From positions 210,001-242,000 of the forward strand of contig JAUIDC010000001.1 of the NCBI GenBank assembly GCA_030429145.1: DNA of 32,000 bases. Direction: 5' to 3'. Both the position numbers and the translations under genes were made by a program. This DNA comes from Candidatus Saccharimonadota bacterium. GTDB taxonomy: Bacteria > Patescibacteriota > Gracilibacteria > Absconditabacterales > Absconditicoccaceae. Below the pieces are notes generated by a model. That model did not search any database. It was not told the origin of the DNA and worked only from the letters and a program-made list of their open reading frames with translations. This document shows positions 3,479 to 28,507 of this stretch, piece by piece; the first letter of the stretch is position 1; every line of letters begins with the position of its first letter.

Positions 3479-4753
3479 TTAAATAATGTTTACTAGTTCA
3501 CTGATATGTTTCATCCTCTGATGATCAATGATACTCATCTTTTCTCACATCTCTTTTCTTCTTTTCTCGTGCAATTTAGTAGGCAAAATTTGTCCGCCTA
3601 GACCTATCTCTCCTAGAAAAAGGAGATTTTTATCAACGACAATATTTTTGTATTGCGAATAGATACCTGCCGCAATAGCGAGATCAAGTCCACTATCCTT
3701 AAATGAAAACTCTCCTGGGATGTTCACAAAAATATCAAATCGACCAAGGTTTGCTTTTAAGTATCTCTCCAAAATAGCCACAATGAGATTTACTCTTGCA
3801 GGGTCAACTCCAACGATTTGACGGGTAGGAAACTTTCCTTTGGTCTTATTGAGGAGCACCTCTAGATGCACCACTACTGGACGACCATTGTCGATGCCGA
3901 CGGTCAGCACAGAACCGGGTATCGTCAGATTTGCCGAATTAATAATGCGTTCCTTAAGGTCATAAACCGGCTTGAGACCAAATAAGGTCATCTCAAAGAT
4001 CGCAACCTCATCGGTATTACCAAAACGGTTTTTGATGCAACGTAAGATACGATATTGTCAGTAGCGATCTCCTTCGAGATAGAGAACCACGTCAACAAGA
4101 TGTTCAAGATATTTAGGACCAGCAATCTCTCCACCTTTCGTCACGTGTCCTATCACCCACGCAGTGATATTTTTCTTTTTGCATAGCTCTGCTATCTTCT
4201 CTGCACAGTATTTAACCTGAGCAGGGCTACCAGATGCATTATCAATATTTTCTGAATAGATCGTCTGGATAGAGTCTATGATAATAAGATCATACTGTCC
4301 CGTCTCTGCTGTCAGTAAAATATCCTCTAGATGATTTGCATGAAAGATATCCATATGTTCATTCTGTTTATCTTCCGTAATCCTTGCTTGACGATCAACT
4401 ATCTGATCACTTTGTTCCTCACCTGAAAAATATGCCACACGTTGCGTCGTAAACTGTTGTACTATCTGCAAAGCAATAGTCGACTTACCAATACCTGGCT
4501 CTCCACCAAGGAGATAGACTCCTCCTTGTTTCAGTCACTTTGGAAAAATACGAGCAAGCTCTGTGTCTGATAGTGGGATATACTGCGAAGATTTCTTTTC
4601 AGTCACTTCTAGCTCTTGCCCTGTTGCAATCCCCTTCTTTTTTGACTTTCCTGTTATCCCACGCACTTCCGAAAATGAACCAAATGCTCAGCACTCCGAA
4701 CACTTTCCTAGCTTTACTGCACTGCTATGTCAGCAATCATTACATACGTACAT
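3479..4753 (-). CDS. radA: DNA repair protein RadA/Sms
   Basis: The zinc ribbon is MYVCNDC-G(TGA)-HSSAVKLGKCSEC-G(TGA)-AFGSF. The Walker A is GGEPGIGKST, followed by the KNRFG motif and a Lon-like C-terminal domain. TAA is at 3479-3481. Confidence 0.9.
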
Positions 4754-4828
4754 TTTCTACTCTCTCATCTCTAAAATCACCTTAATATACGCATACCCTA
4801 CGCATATGCAACTCAACCGCCATATTCA

Positions 4829-4856
4829 TTGACTTATTGCGTTATATTTATAGAAT
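4829..4856 (+). promoter_or_regulatory. sigma-70-type promoter upstream of rpoD
   Basis: TTGACT (4829-4834), a 16-nt spacer, then TAGAAT (4851-4856), about 35 nt upstream of the ATG at 4891. Confidence 0.5.
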
Positions 4857-4890
4857 TGTGAGAATTTACGTCTTTCGAAAGAAGAGCACC

Positions 4891-6132
4891 ATGGCAATGA
4901 GACAACTCAAAATCACCAAGGCAATTACCAATCGTGAATCACAATCACTTGAAAAATATCTACAAGAAATTGGGAAAATAGACCTCATCACTCCAGAAGA
5001 GGAGGTCCAACTTGCCCTACGTATAAAACAAGGAGATCAAGTCGCATTGGAAAAGCTGACGAAAGCCAATCTTCGTTTTGTAGTATCTGTTGCTAAACAG
5101 TATCAAAATCAGTGACTCTCTCTTTCGGACCTTATAAATGAATGAAATCTTGGTCTCATTAAAGCTGCCCAACGTTTTGATGAGACAAAAGGATTTAAAT
5201 TTATCTCATATGCCGTATGGCGAATTCGTCAATCAATTCTCCAAGCATTAGCTGAAAACTCACGCGTCGTTCGTCTTCCTCTCAATAAAGTCTGAATGTC
5301 CAATAAAATTAGTAAAGCCTATTCCAAGCTTGAACAAGACTTTGAACGTGAACCGTCTTCTGAAGAAATAGCCGAGATGCTCGAACGAGAAGTCGAGGAA
5401 GTCGAAAACACACTCTGAATAGGCGGGAAACACGCATCATTAGATGCACCTTTTGCTGGCAGCGAAGGAGAAGATGCTTTAACACTACTCGATTGTTTGA
5501 CATGATCAACAAGCGACTCTCTTTTGGAGGCTCTCGATCAAGAAGATCTCAGAACTCATATTAGATGTGCTCTTGCAAAGCTTACCAAAAAGGAAGCACA
5601 GATTGTTTCTCTCTATTTTGGCTTCGAGGGCGAACCAATGTCTCTACAAACTATTGGGGAAAGTCTTACTCCACCTCTCACTCGTGAAAGAGTAAGACAG
5701 ATCAAAGATAGGGCTGTGTGAAGACTAAAAAGGATTTTGCCAGATGTTATCAAATGAAATCATTTGTCGAAAGATTACGTTTCTCAAAATACTCGTACTA
5801 CTCCGAGACAAAGAGAAGAAATGAAGGGCAAACAAGAAGAACTTACAGAGACCCTCAATGCCTCCGCCCACTCTGTTTGGCAAGAACTACCGCTTGGATT
5901 GCGCTGACTGCCAAAAGACGTCCAGATTACTTGGATTATACAACACTCTCCGCTTGATCCGCATCATCAAGAGATGGCACTTCATTATTTTGTGAGAAAA
6001 AACTATAATCTCAATATTACTAAACCCGGGAATGAAAGCCTCAACGACCATTTCGTCAGAGAAGCAAAGCTGAAACGACAACCCAAAATTGAAAAAGTAC
6101 TAGGAAAGAAAATAGATTTTATCGGAAATTAA
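4891..6132 (+). CDS. rpoD: primary RNA polymerase sigma-70 factor (Bacteroidetes-like short RpoD core) with a 125-aa C-terminal extension under code 25
   Basis: It reads [29 protein letters not shown]...[58 protein letters not shown]...[26 protein letters not shown]. The 288-aa core ends at the TGA at 5755-5757. The first TAA/TAG in frame is at 6130-6132. Confidence 0.85.
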
Positions 6133-16576: not shown

Positions 16577-17137
16577 ATGAAGATCACGAACAAGCGCACA
16601 TCATTTACTCTTATCGAAATGCTTATTGTCATCGTGATAATAGGTATTTTAGCTGCAGCTCTTGTACCGAGGCTGACAGCAGTACAGTGAAGGGCGAGAG
16701 ACAGTAAAAGAAAACTAGACCTCAGGGCACTCTACAATGCGAATGAAATATACCTACTGGATGTCGGACAATATGCTCACGATAGAAAGCCTTCCAATCC
16801 AGCCGCCTCACGTGACAGCACAGATACCTCACCTCGGATGCCAGAATTTAGTTGAATGATGTGAAGTATTCCTACAGACCCTCTCAATAGAAAAAATGGT
16901 TATCTCTATTCGACGGGCACATATATCTACGAGTATTCAAACCTTGTCACATGATCAAAAAATAGCTACATACTCTGAGCAAAGCTCGAAAACACTCAAG
17001 ATGTTGATAGGTGTGAGTTGAAAACATATAAGTACCGAAACCCTTGATCATCTGCTTATCTCAACGCTTACTGCTGAGCTGAAGGAAGGTATACTTACTA
17101 TTATGATCCGGCACAGCTTGCTAACGGCAAACACTAA
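16577..17137 (+). CDS. type IV pilin / GspG-like pseudopilin, paralog A
   Basis: It reads MKITNKRTS-FTLIEMLIVIVIIGILAAALVPRLTAVQ-G-RARDSKRKLDLRALYNANEIY. The C-terminal part shares PTDPLN, LENTQDVDRC...C and YYYDP..ANGKH with paralogs B-D. TAA is at 17135-17137. Confidence 0.8.
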
Positions 17138-19692: not shown

Positions 19693-20223
19693 ATGAAGAA
19701 AAAAACGAATAGAACATTTACGTTGATAGAGATGCTAATAGTCATTGTGATTATTGGTATTTTAGCTGCAGCTCTAGTTCCAAGATTAACCTCAATTCAA
19801 AGTAGAGCAAGAGACAGCAAAAGAAAGATTGACCTCAAAGCTATCTACAATGCAAATGAAATTCATAAGCTCGACTATGGCTACTACGCAGCGTCGGGTT
19901 CATACGTACAAAGTAGTGCAGCACAACCTCGAATGTCATGACTTACTGGATACTTAAGTAGTCTCCCAGTAGACCCAATAAATGACTATATTTCCGCCTC
20001 TCCTCTTGCTACAGGAACATATTTGTATACATATATCAGTCTGTATGGAGAAGGTTACTACTCATTAAGTGCAATGTTGGAAAACACAAAAGACCCTGAA
20101 AGATGCTGAGTTAAAACATATGTCTATAGCTCAAATCTCATACCAAGATGTTGAGCAGGCCATCTTGGAACAAGCCAACTCTACTATTACGATCCACCAA
20201 ATATGTTAGCAGGGAAGCATTAG
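19693..20223 (+). CDS. type IV pilin / GspG-like pseudopilin, paralog B
   Basis: It reads MKKKTNRT-FTLIEMLIVIVIIGILAAALVPRLTSIQSRARDSKRKIDLKAIYNANEIHKLDYGYYA...PVDPIN...LENTKDPERC-G-VKTY...RC-G-AGHLG...YYYDPPNMLAGKH. TAG is at 20221-20223. Confidence 0.85.
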
Positions 20224-20291: not shown

Positions 20292-20822
20292 ATGCAGAGA
20301 CAAATAAAAGCTTTCACACTGATCGAAATGCTGATAGTCATCGTGATTATCGGTATTTTGGCTGCGGCTTTAGTTCCAAGGCTTACTTCTATACAAGAAA
20401 GAGCCAGAGATACAAAGCGCAAGACAGACCTCAAGACAATATACAATGCAAATGAGATTCATAAGCTCGACTATGGCTACTACGCAAACTCTGGAGCATT
20501 CATCTATAGTAGTACCGTAAGTACATGGATGACTGGACTTGCTGGAACATATCTCACGAGTGTACCAGTAGATCCGATCAATATCACTCTTGCCTGATTT
20601 TCAACGTGAGCATACAACTATAAATATCGAAATACTTATGGCGAAGGATACTACTCTCTCATGGCTATGCTAGAAAACCAGAAAGATCCTGACAGATGTG
20701 GAGTAAAATCATATCTCTACTGGCCTGGTAGTTATCAAGTCAGATGTGGTGCTGGGCATCTATGACAAAGTCAGCTCTATCTCTATGACCCCAACAATAT
20801 CATTAACGGTAAGCACAATTAA
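20292..20822 (+). CDS. type IV pilin / GspG-like pseudopilin, paralog C
   Basis: It reads MQRQIKA-FTLIEMLIVIVIIGILAAALVPRLTSIQERARDTKRKTDLKTIYNANEIHKLDYGYYA...PVDPIN...LENQKDPDRCGVKSY...RCGAGHL-G-QSQLYLYDPNNIINGKHN. TAA is at 20820-20822. Confidence 0.85.
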
Positions 20823-20850
20823 GCCACCGTTGACTTATTTTATTTTCATA

Positions 20851-20879
20851 AAAAACACATTGCAAGAGTGTGTTTTTTG
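20851..20879 (+). terminator. rho-independent terminator after pilin C
   Basis: AAAAACACAT-tgcaaga-GTGTGTTTTTT forms a 6-bp core stem extended by A/T-run pairing, with a T-run at 20873-20878. Confidence 0.55.
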
Positions 20880-20887
20880 TTTATAAT
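20860..20887 (+). promoter_or_regulatory. sigma-70-type promoter driving the RT leader/ncRNA
   Basis: TTGCAA (20860-20865), a 16-nt spacer, then TATAAT (20882-20887). It overlaps the pilin C terminator and predicts a TSS near 20894, about 310 nt before the RT ATG. Confidence 0.45.
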
Positions 20888-20893
20888 CTGTTT

Positions 20894-21206
20894 TGCTGCG
20901 CGACGTATTTTGCTACGTCATTACCAATCAACAGCGACAGGTCATTTTTTGACTGCCAGTCGTTAATTGGGAGTAGCATATCCGTGGGGATTTGGGTGGC
21001 AGAAAATTACTGAAATATTACCCCCCAACCACACTCTGCTGGGTTAAGGATGTTTGCAATAGTTAGGAAAGTGTTCTTTTTTTAGAGAGGGAAACCTCAA
21101 CAACTTAAGAAACAGTAAGAATGAGTCTTGAAGGCTTGTTTATGCTACGCTGAAATAACTATTGCTCCCTTTTCTCGGCATCTATATCCGTATTACTATC
21201 ATCAAC
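20894..21206 (+). ncRNA. candidate structured non-coding RNA / template leader of the reverse transcriptase
   Basis: No plausible ORF. There are several local hairpins (20902-20919; 20935-20962; a long G/C-rich stem 20984-21034; a GNRA hairpin 21087-21098). A longer-range 8-bp pairing joins 20973-20980 to 21141-21148. G- and C-runs are atypical for this AT-rich genome. Confidence 0.4.
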
Positions 21207-23252
21207 ATGACGGATAATCATCTTGCAAAGTTTTATAGCGGTCCCGCCAGTATTCTGGCGGACCAACGCATACTGACAGCCGTCAGTATTTTTTTGCAAA
21301 CTACACAACAAGAGATCATAGATGTATTCCTACTCAGACAACAGTCAAAGCACCAATCTGAAGACGGACAAACGATAGGACAAGGGTACATACATTATCC
21401 TAAAAGAGAAAAAAAGAAATTTAGATATATCACCGAACCACTACCACAGTTGAGGAGTATTCAAGAAACTATTCTTTTTACTCTACAAGGAATTGAACAG
21501 CGCCATAGTATCATGCAAGAGGAACTAGAAGTATATGCTCGTCTGCAAGGCCACAATGTTGATATCTCACATATCAACAATCATCAAAAGGGACTTCAAT
21601 TTAACGAATCACCAATACAAAAAACCGCTATACATAGAGATGCTCGTATAGACAGACCCTACACTGTAGAAGTAGATATTGCCAATGCTTATTCTTCTCT
21701 ATCCGAAGAGAAACTTTTTTTCATACTACAAGATTTACTAAAAACACAATATAACATACTCCCCTTCAAAGCTCTTTCTCCCCTCGAAATACAAAAAGCA
21801 ACCGCACTCATAGGACATTTTCTCGCTTACGACAATCACCTTGCAACGTGAGCACCTACTAGCCCGTATATTTTTCATAAAGCCCTGAAAGCAACAGATG
21901 AAGACATAGTGGACACGTTAGCATCAACACCTATTGAAAATCCAGTATACACAAGATATCTTGATGATATTTATATTACATTCGACAGAATCAATACTCC
22001 GACTTCTTCCACCATCACAGAGTTTGCCTCATCTCTCTATCAAATATATGACCACCTCGAAGATGAGTGAACAATCGATGTCATCCCTAGACTTGCCAAA
22101 CTGCTACCAAAAATGCAACATTTTTTTACTGGTGCAGAGGTCATCATCAGCGATAACGATGCAAAAAGAGAGACAAGAAAACAGCTCGTAGAACTAAGAT
22201 CACTACTCATTGATTTTAAAAACATGTTATTGCATCGACCAGAACACGCCCTAGAATATAGCATCCAATATGTAGACGGATGATTGTCGGAAGAGTATTT
22301 TATAGAGTATTTTGAAAAAACTCTTACCATCCTCAATCGTTTATCAAATAGTTTATGAAAGAGCTTATTTACCACGATCAAAGCACTAGATTGATTCAAA
22401 AGAAAGCTAGATAAGACAACTCCTGACTATGAAATCACAAAGGAAAGCATTCAATTCGATATTGAGAAAATTTTAAGGAAGCATGGATGGCCAGTCAATA
22501 AGTCAAAGATAAAGACAAGATGACCATCTTCTCCATCCATGAGTACGATGCTTGGATTAGGAATAAACAACAGCAACAAAATTACAATTCCAAGCTGAGA
22601 GATAAAAAGAAAATTAGAAATGTACCGAAACATCCTTACGGATAAATCTCCTATTCCTCGCCACTTCAAACACAAAGAAAGTGGTATCTTAGATTATTGG
22701 AAAATACTAACCTCTCTGCAAGGATACAAAGAATATATTCTTGAAATAAAGTGAGCTGATAAAAAAATTTCTAAAAAAGAAAAAATGCAATATATGCGTC
22801 ATCTAGATGGAATTTTCACAAAAGAAGAGGCAATCCTTATCAGAAGAATAGAGAAAAAATGTGCTTCACACTTTGGCATTAGTGTAGAAGAAGCACATGA
22901 ACTTATTTTTTCGGCCCGAACAGTAGAAAAAGAACAAGCATATGCTATGAGAAAAGGAAGAGCCTATCAGGATGGTGATATTATTTTTGATGAAAACGGA
23001 GAGCCAGTAGATACAAGAGATATTCCTCGGGAGTTAGCAGATTCAAATCTCCCCCCTTTTGAAGAACTATATAACGAGAACTGGTATGATCCAACGAAAA
23101 TACCATGATATATTGACGAATCTCTTGCCCCCATTGATGAGAGAGAGATCCCATGGGAACTACTAGCAGAACAGAAACAAGATAATAATAGAGAGGTTGA
23201 ATCAGAAAAACACGACAACCGACCTGATAATATCGATGATCTACCATTCTAA
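21207..23252 (+). CDS. stand-alone reverse transcriptase (retron/UG-Abi-like palm motifs) with internal insertion and long acidic C-terminal extension
   Basis: RT motifs in order are KFRYITEP / LRSIQETIL (1-2), VEVDIANAYSSL (3), T-G(TGA)-APTSPYIF (4), YTRYLDDIYITF (5, YxDD), ILRKHGWPVNKSKIKT (6) and MLGLGINNSNKITIPS (7). The protein is 681 aa read through 9 TGA. TAA is at 23250-23252. The ATG at 21207 is preferred over the TTG at 21162. Confidence 0.85.
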
Positions 23253-27961: not shown

Positions 27962-28507
27962 ATGGTTTTATCATCAATGTTTACGTATAGAAAACTCTCT
28001 TTTACGTTAATAGAAATGCTAATAGTTATCGTTATTATAGGTGTTTTGGCGGCAGCTTTAGTACCGAGACTCACCTCTCTGCAAGGTAGAGCAAGAGACA
28101 CCAAACGCAAGGCAGACTTCACGACCATCTTGAATGCAAATGAAATATTTTTTATAGACAACACGAGATATGCTTCACATGGATGAGTTGGCTATCTTGT
28201 CAGCACTGCCTCTCAACCTTGGATACCTGAACTGTCAGGCGTACTAGCGACCATACCTACTGACCCGATCAATGACAATGCTTATTATAGATACACCTAT
28301 GCGTCTGTCTATGCTACACCTGTACACACCTACGACCTGCATGTTTCGTTAGAAAATCGTAATGACCCAGACAGATGTGGGGTTAAGGTCTACTACTCCA
28401 ACACCCATTTCCCGAGTAGCCATGTACGTTGCAGTTTATGACAAACAGGTATAAACAACGGAATGATCTACGATGTTTCTCCAAACATTAAAAATTCTGT
28501 CTACTAA
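27962..28507 (+). CDS. type IV pilin / GspG-like pseudopilin, paralog D
   Basis: It reads MVLSSMFTYRKLS-FTLIEMLIVIVIIGVLAAALVPRLTSLQGRARDTKRKADFTTILNANEIF...PTDPIN...LENRNDPDRCGVKVY...RCSL-G-Q. TAA is at 28505-28507. Confidence 0.8.

Follow-up and report, generated by a model that had tools for sequence, protein, structure and literature searches.

We analyzed a stretch of 32,000 nucleotides (nt) of contig JAUIDC010000001.1 (positions 210,001 to 242,000; hereafter the window) and found a conserved RNA structure in the 313 nt at 20894-21206, directly upstream of an open reading frame (ORF) for a reverse transcriptase (RT). With moderate confidence, we interpret this leader as the non-coding part of a structured, retron-derived RNA of ~400 nt that is the dedicated partner of the downstream retron-like RT. 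The helices of the RNA were conserved and co-varied among related loci, the RNA strictly co-occurred with the RT, and the nearest relatives of the RT, by both sequence and fold, were retron RTs.

We searched for relatives of the RT to obtain comparable loci. This family has few members. Four relatives came out of a search through 5.8 billion proteins, and exhaustive searching with HMMER contributed a single full-length member as well as several fragments. The family was not enlarged by two more word-indexed searches of proteins, and back-translated RT motifs recovered no RT relative in GTDB genomes or JGI metagenomes. The eight loci compared here, namely the window, L001 to L006, and L012, came from the HMMER search, contig look-ups, and a YidC-anchored genome scan. 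The window belongs to the chromosome of an uncultivated member of candidate division SR1/Absconditabacteria; in the YidC-anchored scan of GTDB genomes, its closest relatives showed 80-81% YidC identity, and RAAC1_SR1_1 showed 50%. The same promoter-leader-RT cassette was present in all eight loci, with the RT directly downstream of yidC in most of them. The promoter and the helices of the 5' domain (P1 to P4) were located in the window as follows.

20860..20887, plus strand: sigma70-type promoter with -35 TTGCAA (20860-65), a 16-nt spacer, and -10 TATAAT (20882-87); scan score 10/12
20895..20899, plus strand: 5' strand of P1, GCTGC, pairing with 20973-20977; four of five pairs compensatory, 97.5-100% of cells paired
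20973..20977, plus strand: 3' strand of P1, GTAGC, closing a three-way junction; identified by covariation
20902..20919, plus strand: P2 hairpin, GACGTA-TTTTGC-TACGTC; 6/6 pairs co-varying and 100% of cells paired in the eight loci
20924..20970, plus strand: P3 helix, CCAAT (20924-28) with ATTGG (20966-70); 100% of cells paired, four of five pairs compensatory
20980..20991, plus strand: P4, a small hairpin ATCC-GTGG-GGAT, followed by a conserved TTGGG; 94-96% of cells paired

Both promoter hexamers were kept in all eight loci (-35 TTGNNA, -10 TAYANT) at a constant distance of 7-8 nt ahead of P1, and the transcript is predicted to start at ~20894. The 5' domain formed a three-way junction in which P1 encloses P2 and P3, and P4 follows the junction. 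This junction had gone unnoticed in the sequence-only reading introduced below, as had the use of TGA as a sense codon. The P2 loop was conserved as (U/C)UYUGY, and a G directly followed the 5' strand of P1 in seven of the eight loci (G20900 in the window). The insert within P3 was variable, ranging from 4 to 37 nt across the loci and measuring only 4-9 nt in five of them. An unfitted MAFFT alignment of six loci had 99.2% of the P1-P4 cells paired, and 15 of the 20 pairs had changed on both sides; 0/500 shuffles were as good, and slid controls reached only 36-52% pairing. With eight distinct loci, 98.1% of the cells were paired and 17 of the 20 pairs were compensatory. The covariation support for P4 was weaker because most of its pairs are invariant.

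An 8-nt direct repeat, ATATCCGT, was observed at 20978-20985 and 21184-21191. One copy lies over the 3' edge of P1 and the 5' strand of P4, and the other is the linker motif that pairs with codons 2-4 of the RT ORF. P4 could therefore have a competitor for GGGAT in the linker copy.

A covariance model built from P1-P4 (R1) matched only RT-bearing loci, with E values of 9e-18 to 5e-4. There was no match in 18 other SR1 loci without the RT, nor in the distant RT loci L009 and L011. A structured RNA linked to the RT had been proposed from the window alone (hereafter the sequence-only reading), and this proposal is borne out by its presence upstream of the homologous RTs in all eight loci and its absence from the 18 loci lacking the RT. 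The comparison with Rfam suggested in that reading identified no family: Rfam 15, scanned with the whole window, returned nothing at the gathering score, and over 20800-21400 it gave only chance-level matches at E <= 10. In a close relative with 81% YidC identity (L013, OZ246420.1, 9300-10010), neither the RT nor the ncRNA (non-coding RNA) was found beside yidC. Since identity among carriers was 80-84% for YidC but 36-53% for the RT, and since L013 lacks the RT, the cassette is dispensable and evolves fast. Its absence from so close a relative also makes it a presence/absence polymorphism within a narrow clade.

The RT gene itself was read in an alternative genetic code.

21207..23252, plus strand: RT ORF of 681 amino acids (aa), in which nine TGA codons encode Gly (code 25)

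The host genome uses code 25, in which TGA encodes Gly, because a TGA codon in the window aligns with the Gly of RT homologues (HLAT-TGA-APTSP vs HLATGSPASP) and because the long-ORF coverage of the window, which is ORF-poor in the standard bacterial code, rises from 14 kb to 41 kb once TGA is read through. The RT showed a borderline match to RVT_1, and its best PADLOC matches were retron RT models (E = 6.6e-17). The catalytic YLDD motif was present and was invariant throughout the family. We modeled the RT with AlphaFold from a 31-sequence alignment (pLDDT 80.8, pTM 0.74) and compared the model with structures in the PDB using Foldseek. The 12 top neighbors were all retron RTs (Eco2, Ec86, Eco7, Ec78, and Ec83; E values of 1e-9 to 8e-6), whereas AbiA, G2L4, DRT2, and DRT9 ranked below them, with DRT2 in 24th and DRT9 in 30th place. 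A helical insertion of ~170 aa follows the palm, and the C-terminal region had no Pfam match. The C-terminal tail (23000-23252) is acidic, ~100 aa long, and disordered (pLDDT <50), and ends with IDDLPF in the window. We looked at the tail motifs in the window and in L001, L003, L004, L005, and L007. The motif P(V/I)DxRDIP(W/R)E(L/D)AE occurred in one or two copies per tail in all eight family members, and a terminal DD(L/I)P(F/L) in six of the eight. The terminal DDLPF resembles the conserved C-terminal tip of SSB (a protein that binds single-stranded DNA), DDDIPF, on which many proteins of DNA metabolism dock (PMC5872125). P0014, from a more distant branch of the RTs, likewise ends with DPNDIPF.

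The structured RNA continues from P4 through a further hairpin, P5, into a 3' domain closed by the stacked helices P7 to P9.

20992..21028, plus strand: P5, an imperfect G-rich/C-rich hairpin, TTGGGTGG ... CCCCCCAA, from per-locus folding
21037..21065, plus strand: 5' strands of the closing stack of the 3' domain (P7 at 21037-43, P8 at 21046-49, P9 at 21056-65)
21156..21180, plus strand: 3' strands of the closing stack (P9 at 21156-65, P8 at 21168-71, P7 at 21174-80)
21087..21098, plus strand: GAGG-GAAA-CCTC hairpin with a GNRA loop in the variable core, found besides the window only in L001 and L002

When the loci were folded one by one, all eight showed a hairpin at the position of P5, and its loop carried AAUUA in five of them; the P5 sequences could not be aligned. 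All pairs of the closing stack were formed in the window (7/7 in P7, 4/4 in P8, and 10/10 in P9). Its strands differed in sequence between loci and yet matched within each locus. For P7/P8, the duplexes of a locus's own strands had a mean of -12.2 kcal/mol, compared to -7.3 kcal/mol for cross-locus duplexes (permutation p = 0.0004). The stack encloses a variable core of 90-150 nt with a multi-branch fold. A candidate long-range pairing between GGGAG and CUCCC was dropped, as CUCCC is taken by P8.

The structured element does not end at the start codon. It extends ~90 nt into the RT ORF, beyond the coordinates given in the sequence-only reading, and its end is a terminator-like hairpin.

21185..21216, plus strand: P10, TATCCGT (21185-91) with ACGGATA (21210-16, codons 2-4), as paired in the window
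21240..21264, plus strand: hairpin A, GGTCC-C-GCCAG-TATT-CTGGC-GGACC, in codons 12-20; 79% of cells paired, three compensatory pairs
21270..21296, plus strand: hairpin B, ATACTGAC-AGCC-GTCAGTAT with a U7 run, in codons 22-30, from the terminator scan

The 5' side of P10 is a conserved UAUYCG motif, and the ATG (21207-09) lies in the loop in the window. A local helix containing or abutting the AUG was predicted in all eight loci, with differing sequences. Hairpin A formed 5 to 10 of its 10 pairs, depending on the locus. Hairpin B consists of an 8-bp stem and a 4-nt loop and, judged by its sequence, has the features of a putative rho-independent terminator; it was the best uninterrupted terminator-like site in the area. 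All eight of its pairs were formed in all eight loci (100%), with three compensatory pairs and a tail of U5-U7. In L005, the change of CTG to CTT was offset by that of GTC to GTA, both synonymous. Elsewhere, Ile was replaced by Val at one end of the stem and by Thr at the other, so that an A-U or G-C pair was kept. Hairpin B was not found in the three more distant family loci examined.

The hairpin region is both translated and RNA-structured. That it encodes protein while carrying the structure follows from the third codon positions, which were about twice as variable as the others (entropy of 0.87 vs 0.48 and 0.40 at positions 1 and 2), and from RT residues 10-45, which were modeled with high confidence by AlphaFold. 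The same data, together with an ATG frame that was open in all eight loci, led us to reject an in-frame TTG start 3' of the U-run, which would have placed hairpins A and B in the 5' untranslated region (UTR). We discounted transcriptional slippage on general grounds, the T-run being no longer than 5-7 nt.

The five stems and the U-run described in the sequence-only reading were all located where it had placed them. Folding of 20894-21206 on the plus strand gave -88.8 kcal/mol (z = -2.92, with 2/100 shuffles as good), which is modest support for its claim of an unusual structure. The z-scores were -1.5 for the minus strand, -0.75 for the sub-region 20965-21155 (191 nt), and -1.35 to -3.78 for the homologous leaders. 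As these thermodynamic values were only modestly convincing, the fate of each stem was decided by the seven related loci. The first stem (20902-20919) is P2, with the conservation in eight loci and six co-varying pairs given above. The second (20935-20962) is real in the window but represents a lineage-specific insertion within the conserved P3, a site that holds no more than 4-9 nt in five of the eight loci. In the third, for which 14 of 16 paired positions had been counted, we found 12 of 14; its inner TTGGG/CCCAA hairpin recurred in all loci, whereas its outer part, GTGGGG/CCACAC, competes with the conserved P4 (20980-91). The GAGG-GAAA-CCTC stem exists in the window, but counterparts were restricted to three of the eight loci, the window included. 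The enclosing 8-bp pairing of GTAGCATA with TATGCTAC (20973-80/21141-48) had to be abandoned, because it was formed in the window only, with no counterpart in the other loci, and because its GTAGC part is used by P1 with 20895-99. The stretch free of TAA and TAG was also unremarkable, since 601/2000 shuffles did equally well and its position was not conserved. A G/C-rich stem-loop of the leader had been thought unusual for this genome, but the G+C of the leader, 0.41, equals that of the window, and thus only local runs of G and C stand out.

What the RT and its RNA would do together, from RNA binding and priming to the identity of the template, the termination step, and a role in defense, if any, we infer as follows. 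The RT would bind the RNA, most likely via the 5' junction and P4/P5, and would make a short complementary DNA (cDNA) with a portion of the RNA as its primer and template, as retron RTs do with msr-msd. The 5' junction would represent a miniature retron plan, comprising a terminal helix, G20900, a recognition hairpin, and a variable stem. Most transcripts would end at the in-ORF terminator, at ~400 nt, and the free ncRNA would therefore exceed the RT mRNA. Readthrough would follow when a ribosome starts at the structured AUG and melts hairpins A and B. Because readthrough would occur only with an initiated ribosome, we propose that RT dosage is tied to translation. In addition, RT binding near the looped-out AUG may add feedback on RT synthesis.

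Several findings weigh against interpreting the element as a retron-like partner RNA. P1 has only 5 bp and encloses 55-85 nt, and the msd-like stem P3 consists of 5 bp and a loop of 4-9 nt in five of the eight loci, far below known msd stems. In retrons, a conserved guanosine next to the inverted repeats provides the 2'-OH primer; L004 lacks the G after P1 and has UAA there, and the conserved P4-P9 part of ~200 nt has no counterpart in the retron model. Retron ncRNAs have been described with a layout of terminal a1/a2 repeats (PMC7736814, PMC8989520). No inverted repeat across the whole leader was detected: the best distal partner of the 5' end was no better than in shuffles, and its position was inconsistent across the loci, in agreement with the sequence-only reading, which had been unable to identify clear a1/a2 repeats. 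The only conserved partner of the 5' end was the 3' strand of P1, enclosing just P2 and P3. The RT also departs from its nearest relatives. Its PADLOC score was low (~60 bits, compared to 394 bits for a true retron RT in the same search). The region X motif of retron RTs, NAXXH, lies between RT2 and RT3, and the region Y motif, VTG, in RT7 (PMC7736814). Instead of NAxxH, the window RT has KTAIH and the family K(T/V)x(I/V/L)H, which keeps only the H, the most conserved residue; at the region Y position the window has MLGLGI, where the G alone is kept, and more distant relatives have ITG. As for the terminator, such sites were not significantly enriched in the window (17 vs 12 +/- 3.6 in shuffles), and the U-run after hairpin B was only 5 nt in L006.

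The conservation of hairpin B and of the AUG-enclosing helix would also suit a pure cis-regulatory leader, in which an attenuator or autoregulatory switch that sets RT expression is built from the folded 5' UTR, the AUG helix, and the terminator inside the ORF, and the RNA is never reverse transcribed. The template or primer of the RT would then lie elsewhere, or the RT would be protein-primed or template-independent. Bacterial attenuators usually consist of a long structured leader that ends in a terminator, and the leader showed neither an inverted repeat along its whole length nor the signature of a template (an endless ORF or a poly-U loop, for example). We take this explanation seriously but consider it unlikely. 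Retron RTs reverse transcribe their adjacent ncRNA (PMC7736814), a distant branch of the RT family has leaders of the a1/a2 type, and ~300 nt of co-varying, multi-domain structure exceed the needs of a simple attenuator; furthermore, no alternative antiterminator pairing was identified. A canonical retron, in which the 3' domain (P7-P9 and the core) would be the msd and P2-P5 the msr hairpins, yielding a normal multicopy single-stranded DNA of 90-150 nt, is in our judgment quite improbable. Its 3' domain would be a long, closed, and sequence-variable stem structure, as msd regions are, and the retron affinity of the RT would be explained. However, no partner for the 5' end was found downstream of the 3' domain above the chance level, so that the branching G would not be adjacent to the template start, and the core is multi-branch rather than a single long hairpin.

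The sequence-only reading had expected an msr/msd-like or DRT-type template RNA. The former accords with the retron affinity of the RT and with the terminal inverted repeats of its distant branch, whereas the signatures of DRT2 and DRT9 were not found. In these systems, a multi-stem ncRNA that immediately precedes a single RT gene acts as both scaffold and template, and the DRT9 ncRNA has a universally conserved poly-U tract in a loop (PMC12483538). The element resembles them in its several stem-loops immediately 5' of the RT, in P7-P9 joining the two ends of the core, and in the U-rich, conserved loop of P2. In DRT2, a rolling-circle template has one frame without stops, and its concatemer thereby encodes an open-ended ORF; DRT9 synthesizes poly-dA. 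An endless ORF of the DRT2 type (Neo-like) was nevertheless excluded in six of the eight loci by TAA or TAG in every frame of both strands of the 3' domain. The homologues lacked the U7 run at 21077-83, leaving the terminator tail as the only conserved uninterrupted U-run, and the RT fold lies nearer to retron RTs than to DRT2 and DRT9, as the ranks above indicate. We therefore regard a DRT2- or DRT9-type ncRNA as very improbable. An unrelated small RNA or a chance structure upstream of the RT is hardly credible. The fold z-scores alone, at -0.75 to -3.8, are modest enough to suit it, but it is contradicted by the strong covariation, by the restriction of the element to sites beside the RT, with none in a close relative without the RT, and by the lack of a terminator separating leader and ORF.

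The interpretation as a retron-like partner RNA can be extended into a joint proposal, which we doubt will hold in all its parts. The cassette would be an undescribed retron-derived system specific to SR1/Absconditabacteria, in which P1-P3 act as a mini msr-msd that primes a very short cDNA and the in-ORF terminator acts as a translation-coupled attenuator that sets the ratio of ncRNA to RT. The DIPWE repeats and the DDLPF of the tail would tether the system to SSB-interacting nucleases or helicases, e.g., RNase H, exonuclease I, or RecQ, for cDNA processing or silencing or for sensing phage interference.

The neighborhood of the cassette in the window is a housekeeping one, with YceG, TPM phosphatase, LemA, YidC, two pilin genes, the RT, atpD, and ndk; the downstream neighbor of the RT is the convergent atpD. 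A Shine-Dalgarno-like motif was found ahead of 0/31 predicted genes in the window, and its lack ahead of the RT is thus not special. Other features of the surroundings are the following.

16602-16749, 19693-20223, 20292-20822, and 27999-28507: four type IV pilin-like paralogous genes with a common N-terminal FTLIEMLIVIVIIGILAA
20846-20880: an A/U-rich hairpin with a T-run, AAAACACA-TTGCAAGAG-TGTGTTTTTTG, 3' of the second pilin gene and overlapping the -35 element of the RT promoter

The hairpin at 20846-20880 is probably the terminator of the second pilin gene. Two of the four pilin paralogues are inserted between yidC and the RT cassette, an insertion that is missing from most of the related loci. 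No conserved co-oriented neighbor of the RT, as would be sought for a retron effector, was found across the loci. A variable gene lies 3' of the RT in L001 (5387-6121), L002 (7974-9428), and L003 (8097-9428) and is absent from the window; the products share a C-terminal ...C(S/N)(I/M)PG(I/V)...(F/I)(T/R)N(L/I)... and have no Pfam match.

The element adds a covariation-supported RNA family, which is not in Rfam, to the small set of RT-associated ncRNAs. It also extends retron-like systems to code-25 bacteria of the candidate phyla, for which our literature searches retrieved no earlier report of one. Should the terminator within the ORF prove functional, it would clearly exemplify the co-evolution of an RNA signal and a protein sequence, as the coupled Ile/Val and Ile/Thr changes preserve a base pair, and it suggests a simple route to much ncRNA and little RT from one promoter. 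The SSB-tip-like tail is a possible link between RT-made DNA and the host machinery that handles single-stranded DNA. Furthermore, for engineers of retrons that are to produce short DNA, the compact 5' junction could be of interest.

We compared the element with known RT-associated and regulatory systems. A diversity-generating retroelement was ruled out: there is no template or variable repeat, and the only direct repeats of >=40 nt in the window are those of the pilin gene paralogues. The window cassette shares with DRT2 and DRT9 the multi-stem ncRNA immediately 5' of a single RT gene; it differs from these defense systems of UG/Abi RTs in its RT lineage, and the window family has neither a stop-free repeat template nor a conserved poly-U loop. 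Attenuators of the leader-peptide type, such as that of the trp operon, couple termination to translation, and group II intron RTs autoregulate at DIVa. The element would resemble the former in that terminator formation would depend on ribosome occupancy of the RNA, and the latter in that the start codon lies in a structure which the encoded protein may bind. In contrast to attenuators, however, the candidate terminator of the window lies in the regulated ORF itself (codons 22-30), is kept by coupled amino acid changes, and is accompanied by no leader peptide.

About 300 proteins matched the family profile, including an unclassified branch of retron-like RTs of ~500 aa (P0010/L009, P0013/L034, P0012, and P0014). 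This branch is 21-25% identical to the window family and shares with it the N-terminal FLQCTQ helix, the insertion after the palm, a promoter of the ATTGACAAAT type, which was also present in L001, L003, and L004, and a long structured leader. In contrast to the window family, the leaders of L009 and L034 are 330-400 nt long with an a1/a2-type terminal helix of 9-10 bp, and both are very stable (z = -9.9 and z = -6.8). The branch also keeps NAxxH and (I/V)TG, and its G/C hairpin is ahead of the ATG rather than within the ORF. Finally, it has a conserved downstream protein of ~310 aa with a HEIGHH motif, which is lacking in the window family. These proteins (L009, 6510-7460; L034, 2602-3528) are 33% identical and carry LHEIGHH, of the HExxH type, with no Pfam match; they may be the metallopeptidase effector of an unclassified retron-like system. 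At 4720-4910, the L009 leader contains GTGTCACAC(AC) repeat arrays and several near-identical small hairpins, TGTTGCACGGTGCAACA and GTGTCAGTTTNTGACAC, each present twice, within the region closed by a1/a2. In another distant relative (L032, 234-307), a tRNA-Arg(TCG) gene with a terminator lies directly 5' of the promoter of the RT cassette and may mark an integration site.

Retron RTs work with an adjacent ncRNA, which they reverse transcribe (PMC7736814), and the msr-msd systems Retron-Eco1 (Ec86) and Retron-Eco2 offer the closest comparison. Their RT palm and thumb fold is the nearest to that of the window RT, whose best profile match, at ~60 bits, is likewise a retron RT model. As in retrons, the window has its ncRNA immediately 5' of the ORF in the same orientation and no terminator between them, and a hairpin whose loop is conserved, together with a variable stem, is flanked by a terminal helix, which a G follows in seven of the eight loci. 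The differences are equally distinct. The terminal helix of 5 bp encloses 55-85 nt and leaves ~200 nt of conserved structure outside, and the RT has K(T/V)xxH, MLG, the helical insertion of ~170 aa, and the acidic tail of ~100 aa. Moreover, the family has no conserved effector gene and carries a terminator-like hairpin inside the ORF, and the cassette occupies a fixed chromosomal site rather than a defense island or prophage. We would place the element among the retron-type RT-ncRNA systems, as a variant not described before and outside every defined retron type.

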